From Candidatus Wukongarchaeum yapensis (GTDB lineage: Archaea > Asgardarchaeota > Wukongarchaeia > Wukongarchaeales > Wukongarchaeaceae): a stretch of DNA of 8,896 nt. Where the stretch lies: positions 1-8,896 of the forward strand of contig JAEOSI010000080.1 of NCBI GenBank assembly GCA_016840425.1, read 5' to 3'. A model generated the notes under the pieces. The model did no database searches. It had not been told where the DNA came from and saw only the letters and a program-made list of their open reading frames with translations. The position numbers were made by a program, and so were the translations under genes. Within the stretch, counting starts at the first letter, position 1, and each line of letters starts with the position of its first letter. This document shows, piece after piece, positions 4,276-8,513 of this stretch.

Positions 4276-5790
4276 ATGACTGATAATAATGATGAGGAAA
4301 CAGGAGACGTTTTGGAAACTGAAAAGGCTATCAGATGGCTTGACGGCGTTGATATCCAAACAGGAATAATAACCCAAGAAGACCACCCGTTGGAAGGGGT
4401 TTCAATGGCAGGAAAAACTCTCATCATGCCTAAATCTGCCGGTTCAACGGTAGGCACTTACAGGCTTTTTGCCCTGATTAAAAACCGTAAAGCTCCGAAG
4501 AAAATAGTTTTGAAGGAGTATGATGCAATAACTCTTCCTGCTATCCTTTTCGGCGTTGAAGTAGAGATCACAAGAACTTGCAAAAAGAATGAAAGGGGTG
4601 TTTATGTAGACGAAGCTGATGTTTTAGGACTTCCAAGCGAGTTTTTAGATTACTTAAAGAAGGAAGCAGAGCTTGCAGGTTCTGAAAGGTTAGTGCCAGT
4701 AACTTCTGCTCAAATTTCAGGCGTAAGTTATAAAACAATAACCGATGCTGGTCTTGATTTTATTCAAAGCTTTGTCGAAAAGGGTTATAAAGTGCGTGTT
4801 CTAACCACGTTAAACCCTGCAGGGATGGATTTTGATGAATGGGAAACAATGGGAGTACCTGAAAATTTTGCAGTAAAACAAAAACGCATTGCCAAAGCAT
4901 TTCTAAAACTTGGAGTAACCCCCACTTTTACTTGTACCCCCTATCTTTGTGGAAATGTACCAATGTTTGGAGACCATATAGCATGGGCGGAAAGCAGTGC
5001 AGTAATATTTGCAAACTCCGTACTGGGAGCACGCACCGAACGGGAAGGATCAGCAAAAAGCCTTATCGCAGCGATTTGCGGTTTAACTTCGATGTGCGGT
5101 GCACATCTTATGGAGAACAGGATTCCAACCCACATAATTAATCTCGACTTCATGCCAAAAACTTTGAACGAGTATAGCTTGATCGGAATGTTTATTGGAG
5201 AAAAATTCGGAAGCGGACAGCAAAGATGTACCCCCTATCTTAGGTTTAAAAGCAAAAAATTAACCTTAGACCAGTTAAAAGCCTTAGGCGCTGGTCTTGC
5301 AACCTCCGGATCGATATCAGTTTATCACGTGGAAAATGTTACCCCTGAAGCAAAAACCAGCCTAATAACTCCTGAAAATGCTGAAGAGACTTTTAAATGC
5401 TCCAAAGAGGAAATCAAAGCTATTATGAAGAAGTTAACAACCACAGGGGAAAAACCAGACCTTATCACTTTAGGATGCCCACATGCCTCAATAACAGAGA
5501 TCTCAGAAATAGCAGAAACCCTCAAAGAAAAGAGATTAAAGATCCCTCTTTGGGTTTGCACAAGTAAACCTGTAAAAGAAATTGCAAAGAGACAAGGCTT
5601 TGAACGCATTATTAAAAGGTCGGGAGGTCTAATAGTAGCTGATACGTGCATGGTAGTAGCTCCCCTTGAAATGATGGGGTATAAAATCATAGGGACCAAC
5701 AGCTCAAAAGCAGCACATTATCTCAAATCTTTAAGCGGTTTAGATGTAGTTATTGCCTCCTTAAAAGAACTCATAGAGATAGCCACGTAA
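4276..5790 (+). CDS. acnX: Aconitase X, single-chain fusion of small (DUF126 swivel) and large (DUF521) subunits; probable phosphomevalonate dehydratase
   Basis: Residues about 10-115 carry small-subunit motifs GVDxxTG, GKTLIMP and GSTVG (catalytic Ser57). Residues about 135-504 carry SAQISGVSY, TTLNP, TCTPY (C220), AWAESSA, GARTxREG, GCPH (C401), DTCMVV (C458) and TNSSK. The frame is continuous. It starts 18 nt after the UbiD-family stop, with SD-like AGGGG. Confidence 0.92.
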   Translation: MTDNNDEETGDVLETEKAIRWLDGVDIQTGIITQEDHPLEGVSMAGKTLIMPKSAGSTVGTYRLFALIKNRKAPKKIVLKEYDAITLPAILFGVEVEITRTCKKNERGVYVDEADVLGLPSEFLDYLKKEAELAGSERLVPVTSAQISGVSYKTITDAGLDFIQSFVEKGYKVRVLTTLNPAGMDFDEWETMGVPENFAVKQKRIAKAFLKLGVTPTFTCTPYLCGNVPMFGDHIAWAESSAVIFANSVLGARTEREGSAKSLIAAICGLTSMCGAHLMENRIPTHIINLDFMPKTLNEYSLIGMFIGEKFGSGQQRCTPYLRFKSKKLTLDQLKALGAGLATSGSISVYHVENVTPEAKTSLITPENAEETFKCSKEEIKAIMKKLTTTGEKPDLITLGCPHASITEISEIAETLKEKRLKIPLWVCTSKPVKEIAKRQGFERIIKRSGGLIVADTCMVVAPLEMMGYKIIGTNSSKAAHYLKSLSGLDVVIASLKELIEIAT

Positions 5791-5824: not shown

Positions 5825-5847
5825 GGGCGGATTTACTTTCTTTTTAA

Positions 5848-7221
5848 AAGTGTAGATTTTTCCTGCCTTTTTTCCCTACAAAAACCGGTAAACAGAGCAA
5901 TAATAGCAGAAAATCAACCATATAGTAGGGAGACTGGAATGGTGAAACTTGAAAATTTCCTTCCTAAAAACTCACAGAGGAAAAACAACAGAGAAGGGAG
6001 AAGGTAAGGAATATGAAAACGATGATTAGTTATAAGTTTAGGTTGTATCCAGACAAAAAGCAAGAGGAAAAGATGTTTGAAGTTCTTGATAGATGTAGGT
6101 TTGTCTATAACAAAATGTTAGAAGGTTTGAACAAGCAGGATAAGCCTAATAGGTTTGAGTTGCAAAACTCGCTTCCAGAGTTAAAAGAAAAATATCTGGA
6201 ATTGAAAAAAGTTTATTCTAAGGTTCTCCAATATGAATCATATAGGCTGTTTTCAAACCTTAGAAGCTTGGCGGGACTGAAGAAGAATGGTAAAAAAGTT
6301 GGGAGGCTTAGGTTCAAGGGTAAAGGATGGTTCAAAACTTTCACGTATAACCAGAGCGGGTTTAAAATCATAGAAACCAGTAAGAGACATGACTTGTTAC
6401 ATTTATCTAAAATCGGAGATATAAAGATTAGAATACATAGAAAGGTGGAAGGGAAGATAAAACAGGTAACAGTAAAGAGGTATAGTTCGGGCAGATGGTA
6501 TGCTTTTCTTTGTTACGAACAAATCATTCCCGATAAAAAAGAGGTTGAAAAAGTTGTAGGAATTGATGTGGGCATAATCCGCTACGTTACTGATACTGAC
6601 GGTAGACAAATAGAACATCCTCTTTATCTGAACAATTCTTTGAAAAGTTTGAGAAGAAATCAAAGAAAATTATCTAAGAAAAAGAAGGGATCGAACAATT
6701 ATAATAAGCAGAAAATAAAAGTTGCAAAAATGTATGAAAAGGTCAAAAACCAGAGGGATGATTTCTTACAAAAACTATCAAGGTTTTATGCTGACAATTA
6801 TGATTTTATAGCTGTCGAGAAATTAAACATAAAAGGTTTGATAAGGATAAGTTATAATGCTAGGAACGTAATGGACTCCTCTTGGAGAAAATTCGCACAA
6901 TTTCTGTCTTACAAGGCTGAAAGAGCTGGTAAGACGGTTGTAGAAGTGAATCCGAGAGGAACTACACAAGAATGTTATAAATGCGGTAAAGAAGTAAAGA
7001 AAAGCTTGGCTGTAAGAATCCACAAATGTCCTTACTGTGGGTTAGAAATTGAGAGAGACTACAATTCCTCATTTGTAGTTCTCAAAAGAGGTTTAGAAGA
7101 ACTGTTAGGGCAGGGACTGTCCGAATTTACGCCTGTGGAGATAGAACCTCTACCGAGAGAAATCTCAGCAAGTTCAGTCGTTGAAGCAGGAAGCTTTTTG
7201 CGATAGCTGGGAGCGGTTCAC
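5848..7221 (+). mobile_element. tnpB-only IS200/IS605-family element (IS1341-like), non-autonomous
   Basis: Contains tnpB and no tnpA. The right end has a subterminal hairpin and ends in TTCAC (7217-7221), typical of the family. The left boundary is inferred just after TTTAA (5843-5847), or at 5855 if the 7-nt AAGTGTA copy is host DNA, because joining there restores a clean 3' end for the HD gene. The right end is more certain than the left. Confidence 0.75.
6013..7206 (+). CDS. tnpB: TnpB RNA-guided endonuclease
   Basis: 397 aa with N-terminal YKFRLYP...RFVYN, RuvC-I GIDVG (D185), RuvC-II IAVEKL (E269), zinc finger CYKC/CPYC (C321, C324, C339, C342) and RuvC-III ERDYN (D349). Confidence 0.97.
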   Translation: MKTMISYKFRLYPDKKQEEKMFEVLDRCRFVYNKMLEGLNKQDKPNRFELQNSLPELKEKYLELKKVYSKVLQYESYRLFSNLRSLAGLKKNGKKVGRLRFKGKGWFKTFTYNQSGFKIIETSKRHDLLHLSKIGDIKIRIHRKVEGKIKQVTVKRYSSGRWYAFLCYEQIIPDKKEVEKVVGIDVGIIRYVTDTDGRQIEHPLYLNNSLKSLRRNQRKLSKKKKGSNNYNKQKIKVAKMYEKVKNQRDDFLQKLSRFYADNYDFIAVEKLNIKGLIRISYNARNVMDSSWRKFAQFLSYKAERAGKTVVEVNPRGTTQECYKCGKEVKKSLAVRIHKCPYCGLEIERDYNSSFVVLKRGLEELLGQGLSEFTPVEIEPLPREISASSVVEAGSFLR

Positions 7222-7241
7222 AAGTGTATGCTTGTAGCGAG
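7105..7241 (+). ncRNA. TnpB omegaRNA (reRNA): 3' scaffold plus guide
   Basis: Overlaps the tnpB 3' end. Visible elements are hairpin GGGCAG-gga-CTGTCC (7108-7122), CCTG (7132-7135) pairing with CAGG (7187-7190), GAAC/GTTC (7144-7147/7172-7175), GAGA-GAAA-TCTC (7155-7166), the right-end hairpin (7193-7214) and TTCAC. The predicted guide starts at 7222 (AAGUGUAUGCUUGUAGCGAG). The 5' end and guide length cannot be fixed from sequence. Confidence 0.8.
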
Positions 7242-8513
7242 TGTCGGGTCACCAAGAACTTTTTTCGCAGCTTTTTGTACCTTTTCTCTATACTTCTTTT
7301 CGCTATAAACTCTTAAAATACCGTAAAAACCGCGCATCACTTCGATAATTTTTGAGTATTCGGATAATTTTCCCCCGATTTTTCGATCTCCTTCCTCATA
7401 AAATACAGGGATCTCCATGGGTTCAAGCTCTATGCTGTGACGATAAGGTATGGATGGCAAGGTTGGCACATCGATTATCACGTTTTCTGGCGGTAAATCA
7501 GCTTTTTCTGCTATTTCCTGTTGCACACTTTCTCGAACTTTTTCCGTAGTAAAAATGCGGGAAAGCATCTCATCCTTGTGGTGTGAAACCCCCTCATACG
7601 CAACTTTTAAAAGGTTTCTTTTCCGAAGATCATCCATCAAAGTCTGCGATTCTGGTATTTCACTCAACTTCATCCATAATTTATAATCATCCCAAGAAAG
7701 ATACTCTTCAAGGGAAGGGTTTTTTAAAAGCTCTAACTCGTCTGAAGCCTTTTCAATGGCAAGAGTGATCATTAGCTGCGCTGCCCGCGAAACTTTATGA
7801 AAATAAACGCTCTTAAAACTAAACATTCTCGCCATGATAAAAGCTTCAAGGGCGGATAATGATGTAAGGTTTCCCGCTAAATTACCATCCACGACGCTTA
7901 CGGTGTAAAGAATTCTGAAAATATCAACCGCGCCATACTCTGCTCCCGAATGATAACTGTCCCGTAATATGTAATCCATTTTATCAACGTCAAGGGCGCT
8001 GGCCACAATCTGATCAAGAAACGGTTTTCCGGGCATGTTCAACCTCCCTACAGCCATGCTTGCAACCTTTCTTTTATCGATTCCTGCATCAGCTAAAATA
8101 TCCCCTATTTCTGTAGACATAATTATCTCAAAACTGAAATCTTCATGCGTTTTTCCAAGCATCTTAATAAGGTGAGGCTCAAGATTATGAGAAAAAGGAC
8201 CATGGCCCACATCATGAAGCAGTCCAGCACACTTAAACTCATAAATCTCCTCGTCGCTTATGAAAGCCTGCTCGTTCAAAACCCTTGCCATCTCTCCTGC
8301 AAGATGCATAACTCCTATCGAATGCTCAAACCTCGTATGATTTGCACCAGGATATGCATACTCAGCCCCAGAAAGCTGCTTTATACGTCTCAACCTTTGA
8401 ACAGGTAAAGTATCTATTATATCCTTCTCTAAATAAGAGATCCCCAAATAGCCAAAAATAGTATCTTTAATAAAGCTCCACGTAGCATGTTTCTTATCTG
8501 GGCTCGATTTCAT
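7218..8513 (-). CDS. HD-domain phosphohydrolase, SAMHD1-like dNTP triphosphohydrolase family
   Basis: 431 aa with QRLRRIKQLS, YPGANHTRFEHSIGV, GLLHDVGHGPFSH and LDVDKMDYILRDS, giving the full H...HD...D metal-binding set. Substrate not determinable from sequence. Confidence 0.93.
   Translation of the reverse strand: MKSSPDKKHATWSFIKDTIFGYLGISYLEKDIIDTLPVQRLRRIKQLSGAEYAYPGANHTRFEHSIGVMHLAGEMARVLNEQAFISDEEIYEFKCAGLLHDVGHGPFSHNLEPHLIKMLGKTHEDFSFEIIMSTEIGDILADAGIDKRKVASMAVGRLNMPGKPFLDQIVASALDVDKMDYILRDSYHSGAEYGAVDIFRILYTVSVVDGNLAGNLTSLSALEAFIMARMFSFKSVYFHKVSRAAQLMITLAIEKASDELELLKNPSLEEYLSWDDYKLWMKLSEIPESQTLMDDLRKRNLLKVAYEGVSHHKDEMLSRIFTTEKVRESVQQEIAEKADLPPENVIIDVPTLPSIPYRHSIELEPMEIPVFYEEGDRKIGGKLSEYSKIIEVMRGFYGILRVYSEKKYREKVQKAAKKVLGDPTLATSIHL

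Follow-up and report, generated by a model that had tools for sequence, protein, structure and literature searches.

A tnpB-bearing IS200/IS605-type element between convergent genes of Candidatus Wukongarchaeum yapensis that supplies the stop codon of an HD-domain gene

The window analysed here is a stretch of 8,896 nucleotides (contig JAEOSI010000080.1, C59 in our numbering) from the 277-contig genome assembly of Candidatus Wukongarchaeum yapensis (GCA_016840425.1). It carries a gene for aconitase X (acnX) and, convergent with it, a gene for an HD-domain phosphohydrolase, and between the two lies an intact tnpB reading frame within a mobile element (Table 1). The terminus of this element was read directly as ...GGTTCAC with its last base at 7221. 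On the minus strand the last HD codon, TTG (Leu), is formed by CAA at 7221-7223, such that both the TGA stop and the third base of the last codon lie inside the terminal TCAC of the element, exactly as had been described in an earlier note made from the letters of the window. That note had also reconstructed the uninterrupted gene by deletion of 5848-7221, which gives a minus strand ending S-I-H-F-TAA, and the same sequence is found in two natural alleles that lack the element. The convergent HD-acnX pair is conserved, with an adjoining UbiD, in distant archaeal lineages (contigs L104-L107), and in some of these distant contigs acnX is divided into separate swivel and catalytic genes.

Table 1. 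Features of the window at and around the insertion
Feature	Coordinates	Strand	Evidence or remark
acnX (aconitase X)	4276..5790	+	Pfam AcnX and AcnX_swivel; convergent neighbour left of the insertion site
TTTAA target motif and predicted TAM	5843..5847	+	Empty alleles and ~22 canonical left ends
Former HD stop TAA (TTA within TTTAA)	5844-5846	read on -	Empty alleles
Left copy of 7-bp duplication AAGTGTA	5848..5854	+	Element start or target duplication; once in the empty alleles, twice here
Non-canonical, T-rich left-end region, no family left-end hairpin	5855..6000	+	Homology to other copies from ~5998-6001
tnpB ORF, 397 aa, intact	6013..7206	+	Pfam HTH_OrfB_IS605, OrfB_IS605 and Cas12f1-like TNB
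tnpB TAG stop, in loop of right-end hairpin	7204-7206	+	
Right end and predicted omegaRNA scaffold, ending GTTCAC	7100..7221	+	Conserved in 21-43 copies, covarying pairs
Terminal right-end hairpin	7193-7214	+	
Replacement HD stop (TCA 7218-7220 = TGA; 7221 = third base of last codon)	7218..7221	-	Direct reading, ORF list
Predicted 20-nt guide (target half of empty site)	7222..7241	+	20/20 match to L051, 19/20 to L052, TTTAA before each
Right copy of 7-bp duplication AAGTGTA	7222-7228	+	Within the predicted guide
HD-domain phosphohydrolase gene, 431 aa, ending SIHL-stop	7218..8513	-	Pfam HD and HD_assoc_2

The empty alleles came from a search with the HD protein, which returned two close homologs of equal length ending ...TSIHF, P0001 (98% identity) and P0002 (90%), all other homologs being at most 57% identical. 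The 98% identical protein is encoded on contig L052 (NCBI) and the 90% identical protein on L051 (ENA). Neither contig has a tnpB at this place; 52-53 bp separate the HD stop from the convergent acnX, and in both the DNA runs from the left flank of the window's insertion through TTTAA directly into its right flank. The prediction of an empty allele ending IHF-stop some 55 bp from acnX is thus borne out in two relatives, with the junction as reconstructed. The last residue of the HD protein is tyrosine or phenylalanine in 116 of 120 homologs, and phenylalanine is therefore the ancestral residue and leucine the product of the insertion, which keeps the length of the protein and alters its last residue alone (F431L). 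Given how widely an aromatic residue is kept at this position, the change may carry a cost. Homologs ending ISL were considered as possible additional insertions and this was ruled out, as acnX directly adjoins them and no element is present. In L052 identity to the window is ~98-99% right of position 5600 and ~89-90% left of it, inside acnX (window 5104-5600). As judged from the two sequences, this position is a recombination mosaic boundary in L052 relative to the window; as it lies ~250 bp from the insertion site, the jump in divergence was rejected as a recombination end at that site.

The right border of the element is fixed at 7221, since 25 other copies or fragments in the genome end ...GGGAGTAGTTCAC and their flanks are unrelated beyond this point; alignment of other copies, the check that the earlier note had put forward, thus gives this end. 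The insert measures 1374 bp. AAGTGTA stands at both junctions and is single in the empty alleles (in a BLAST alignment of the window with the empty allele the flanks overlap by 7 bp), and the insert fits any of eight registers, from 5848-7221 through 5855-7228. With a 7-bp duplication flanking the insert, the left border lies at 5848 or 5855: either TTTAA is followed immediately by the insert, which then begins at 5848, or the insert consists of 5855-7221 accompanied by a 7-bp target duplication. Homology of the window copy to other tnpB copies begins only at ~5998-6001, and the ~150 bp before ~5998 have no other occurrence in the genome. The stretch 5848-6000 matches none of the ~22 canonical left ends of the family, and its sole stem is not conserved in the sister species G001. 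Among 400 genomes of the phylum this left end has one partial match, in G001, which is of the same genus, with no second copy within G001, and in exact-match scans of metagenome and genome contigs it was matched by the window locus and the G001 contig only. As these ~150 bp match no other copy and lack the left hairpin, insertion of the window copy by TnpA can only be presumed.

The family to which the element belongs is well represented in the genome, where its canonical left end consists of a 16-nt linker followed by a hairpin that resembles the right-end hairpin. TTTAA, often as TTTTAA, directly precedes ~22 of these left ends and also the window insert, which places insertion immediately 3' of the pentanucleotide. 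TTTAA is on these grounds the target of the family and its predicted TAM, in agreement with the earlier note; the comparison of copies which that note had proposed bears out the motif, and it shows that the left end of the window copy is unlike that of all other copies. The same pentanucleotide is the TAM of SisTnpB1 (10.1101/2023.03.06.531077) and of ISAam1 (PMC12433972). Many gene-less mini-elements of ~200 bp, each after TTTAA, combine the canonical left end with the same omegaRNA/right end. Two elements of 45 bp were also seen (G000:C104 ~5105-5149 and G000:C160 ~803-847), in which the start of the left end is fused via the hairpin to the right end, and these are probably recombination products of the two similar hairpins. 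The genome has ~31 TnpB loci, an intact Y1 TnpA (Y1_Tnp ORF, G000:C70:7637-7990) and a fragment of another at C117; the ORF list shows no Y1 TnpA or other transposase gene within the element besides tnpB. Mobilisation would have been in trans by the Y1 TnpA of the genome. A second tnpB/omegaRNA lineage (right ends at G000:C110, C228 and C258) has another scaffold body with the same terminal hairpin and GTTCAC, so that different TnpB lineages probably depend on a TnpA of one and the same specificity. Of the features that mark a tnpB-only, IS1341-type member of IS200/IS605, the window copy has the TnpB domains and D-E-D residues and the right-end hairpin and cleavage motif, with a Y1 TnpA in the genome; it lacks a left-end subterminal hairpin resembling the right-end one, and its target is not duplication-free (7-bp AAGTGTA at both junctions, with 8-bp duplications in two more copies).

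The best explanation of the locus, to which we give a probability of roughly 0.88, is that a tnpB-only element of IS200/IS605 type (IS1341-like) inserted at TTTAA over the HD stop and supplied a replacement stop. On this view the 1374-bp element entered 3' of TTTAA, at a point where the motif overlapped the original HD stop, TAA, and it divided the last HD codon, TTT (Phe), between its second and third bases. The last base of the element, C, completes the new codon TTG (Leu), with the preceding TCA serving as the TGA stop on the HD strand. The insertion with its two junctions, the empty site, the target motif of the family, the intact ORF and the recurrence are directly established; omegaRNA expression, TAM-dependent cleavage, homing and mobilisation in trans are predictions. 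The element is of a known kind; its landing bias is under-described and the duplication is non-textbook.

In general terms a minus-strand gene ending NNT-TAA-A presents TTTAA on the plus strand and after insertion ends NNG-TGA. TTTAA holds a stop on both strands, and the right end ...TTCAC brings a stop for the opposite strand that falls into the corresponding frame, for which reason landings on stop codons would often survive. The count of element ends on opposite-strand stop codons that the earlier note had proposed gives 7 of 43 ...GTTCAC right ends in the genome at which a convergent ORF, no shorter than 145 codons, takes its TGA from the element. A comparable stop is found at 0.9% of all TTTAA sites (p 1e-7 for 7/43) and at 2.1% of tolerated sites, that is intergenic-like plus stop-overlapping ones (p 3e-5), corresponding to 18-fold and 8-fold enrichment respectively, and these statistics are rough in that the gene mask is crude, with 72% of the genome covered, and the copies are not fully independent. 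Besides the HD gene, the genes affected include those for aIF5B (612 aa) and lipoate ligase and two radical-SAM genes. At aIF5B the G001 empty allele reads ACT TAA and the window genome ACG TGA, a silent change, and at the B12 radical-SAM gene the corresponding readings are AGT TAA and AGG TGA. The insertions at the lipoate ligase gene and at one radical-SAM gene are common to the window genome and G001, showing that such arrangements last. The element at the aIF5B stop (G000:C239 ~850-1542) is itself truncated, with ~280 bp of the 3' part of tnpB plus the right end joined to ~400 bp of unrelated sequence, and the motif at its far border is GTTAA where G001 has TTTAA.

It is rather probable that the coincidence with stop codons reflects target composition and survivorship alone, with no benefit or function involved, TTTAA carrying TAA on both strands and being common at gene ends, and insertions elsewhere being purged. 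This explanation is compatible with insertion over the HD stop as proposed above and concerns only the cause of the bias. It is favoured by the drop in enrichment from 18-fold to 8-fold under the tolerated-site null, by the incomplete gene mask, which means that the true null share is higher, and by the finding of no evidence of host function. However, the excess over tolerated sites, in copies that are not fully independent, is still significant (p ~3e-5), and the two insertions common with G001 are old. A bias to convergent gene ends, as suggested in the earlier note, is thus upheld, but near-neutrality is not, since at the HD gene leucine replaces a residue that is aromatic in nearly all homologs. 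No paper was found in the literature in which paired stop codons of target motif and right end explain the persistence of such elements.

IS200/IS605 elements are described as duplication-free (PMC7290912). The 7-bp duplication of the window, single in the empty alleles L051 and L052, has counterparts in two 8-bp duplications at C125 and C232, each present as a single copy in the G001 empty allele. The flank of each right end was sought directly after an upstream TTTAA, with the flanks of other elements as control, and flank duplications were found at 3 of 43 right ends against 0.024 expected (7 nt). A chance origin of the 7-bp repeat was thereby ruled out. Four other full copies have no flank duplication. 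At C232 the canonical left end is present with its first 7 nt replaced by the 8 duplicated bases, and the left ends of C125 and of the window copy are T-rich and without the hairpin. A staggered double-strand cut, in place of the single-strand Y1 (TnpA) route, would make the element 5855-7221 with a true 7-bp target-site duplication, and would agree both with three duplications that are single in their empty alleles and with the missing left-end hairpin of the window copy. It is nevertheless unlikely, because all three duplications start right after TTTAA and the right junction is the canonical ...TTCAC border; these are the borders that target cleavage by TnpA predicts and would be unexpected from an unrelated transposase. 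Furthermore, C232 keeps a canonical left end minus its first 7 nt, the other full copies are without duplication and the element has no other transposase gene.

Canonical transfer of the right end with a host-repaired left junction is favoured over a staggered cut, given that the three duplications begin exactly at the TnpA-type target border and that the right junctions are canonical. Host repair may have built or rebuilt the left junction, as could happen after a strand transfer that failed at the left end or when a break is mended imprecisely. A short fill-in would have started from the 3' end of TTTAA and then been joined onto a left end that had been trimmed. Alternatively, the junction would stem from a break made by TnpB and repaired with loss of precision. 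Stated for the lineage, and only tentatively, the proposal is that in 3 of 43 insertions in this Asgard lineage TnpA made the right junction at TTTAA and a host-repaired left junction copied 7-8 nt of the target and trimmed or replaced the start of the left end. A literature search found no paper describing short TTTAA-adjacent duplications in IS200/IS605 elements.

Part of the aberrant left end has a relative elsewhere. A module at 5875-5971 is 85% identical to the region upstream of an unrelated, broken tnpB at G001:C26 (L080 ~671-770, window orientation), and the ~100 bp shared contain 33 identical nt in a row that form the start of a short ORF (MVKLENFLPKN...). The module may be a shared promoter or leader swapped between tnpB elements. 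The right flank of the G001:C26 locus has an empty counterpart in G000:C125 and the left flank has none. A 12-mer, AAAAGTGTATGC, stands after TTAA in L080, ~74 bp upstream of the shared module, and agrees base for base with the empty HD site in the lineage of the window, at a chance probability roughly put at ~1e-3. A later transposition could have brought it there as a piece of duplicated target, and its position upstream of a related module in the sister species hints that duplicated target bases can later travel as part of the element.

The TnpB protein itself retains the features of a nuclease. Comparison with ISDra2 TnpB structures gave E=1e-43, the RuvC motifs are kept (GIDVG 183, AVEKLN 267, ERDYN 347), as are the CxxC pairs of the zinc finger at 321 and 339, and dN/dS against the intact copy at C137 is 0.14; on these sequence characters the protein is apparently active. 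The last ~120 nt of the element are conserved in the mini-elements and stem pairs covary in the right end. No Rfam family was matched at threshold, with a sub-threshold RAGATH-18 match at 7132-7192 only, and a single-sequence fold of the right end was no better than those of shuffles (z = -0.84), so that the structure of the right end rests on covariation. If an omegaRNA is expressed from this region its guide would be the 20 nt to the right of the element, which by the family rule form, with TTTAA, exactly the empty site. The matches to the two empty alleles (Table 1) accord with the prediction of the earlier note that the guide is aimed at the empty 3' end of the HD gene. The guide runs antisense to the closing codons of the HD gene, and no matching target for its 20 nt was found in the window's own genome. 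Under TAM-dependent cleavage, alleles without the insertion would be cut by the ribonucleoprotein, which would favour retention or re-copying of the element, by analogy with the homing model for IS605 elements (10.1101/2023.03.14.532601). The sequence AAGTGTAGAT resembles the end of a Cas12a repeat, a likeness that was set aside as coincidence, no array being present.

The left arm of the right hairpin reads GCTTTTTGC in the window and GCTCCCTGC in most copies. With its three C-to-T changes the arm can still form G-U pairs in RNA, but three G-T mismatches in DNA make for a weaker DNA hairpin. The changes also create a T5 run at 7195-7199, which might work as an archaeal terminator in front of the guide. 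TnpB proteins 99-100% identical to that of the window were found on eight contigs, derived from samples at JGI (such as 3300001854, 3300027893 and 3300028823), NCBI and ENA. In every case tnpB lies between acnX and the HD gene, and no second insertion site occurs among them, which indicates a single copy that has become fixed in one lineage. One of the eight is listed without DNA, and the other seven match the window at 99.7-100% identity. A strain with 98.8% identity in the HD flank lacks the element. The missing left hairpin together with the changes in the right hairpin suggests that the window copy no longer transposes, and it is probably immobile. Domestication of an immobile copy, with TnpB/omegaRNA or antisense transcription serving the host in, for instance, regulation of the HD 3' end or exclusion of foreign alleles, would fit a single copy fixed in one lineage across samples, the intact tnpB ORF under purifying selection, the lost left end, the G-U pairs kept in RNA and the antisense guide, but is improbable. 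The catalytic residues are intact, which sets the protein apart from known TldR-type repressors; the signal of purifying selection comes from comparison with a paralogous copy and so is not locus-specific; and the T5 run of the hairpin could instead terminate the omegaRNA before the guide.

The tnpB-only element inserted over the HD stop can be set beside several known systems. IS608 (ISHp608) of Helicobacter pylori likewise inserts 3' of a short motif, TTAC as compared with TTTAA here, and its right end likewise closes, behind a subterminal hairpin, with a short motif of related sequence, TCAA as compared with TTCAC; similar left and right hairpins are a further IS608-like feature of the family copies. 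In contrast to IS608, the window copy is tnpB-only, has no recognisable left hairpin and is associated with a 7-bp duplication, IS608 making none. SisTnpB1 of Sulfolobus islandicus REY15A is also an archaeal IS200/IS605 TnpB with a TTTAA TAM, which was deduced, as here, from the motif before left ends (10.1101/2023.03.06.531077), and the ISAam1 TnpB shares this TAM. The closest solved relative found for the window TnpB is ISDra2 TnpB, with which it has in common an omegaRNA scaffold that overlaps both the right end and the 3' terminus of tnpB, a flank that serves as guide, and conserved RuvC and zinc-finger motifs, the scaffold and guide of the window copy being predicted. The TAM of ISDra2 TnpB is by contrast TTGAT, and in the window homing is inferred only, and the copy may be unable to excise. 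The ~200-bp mini-elements of the genome resemble PATE-like gene-less IS200/IS605 elements, whereas the window element is of full length and encodes TnpB.

The locus offers a natural before-and-after pair for a TnpB transposon that landed without breaking a gene, and it gives the predicted TAM, guide and target of an uncharacterised archaeal TnpB. Stop codons in matching frames of target motif and right end could explain how such elements persist beside essential genes, for example that for aIF5B, in compact genomes. The TAM-adjacent duplications go against a defining trait of IS200/IS605 elements and point to an alternative completion of insertions. If this is correct, repair-completed insertion would duplicate target bases in a family whose definition excludes such duplication, and could lock a TnpB/omegaRNA unit permanently onto a host stop codon. 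Such alternative completion would bear on how TnpB loci become fixed and are later domesticated.
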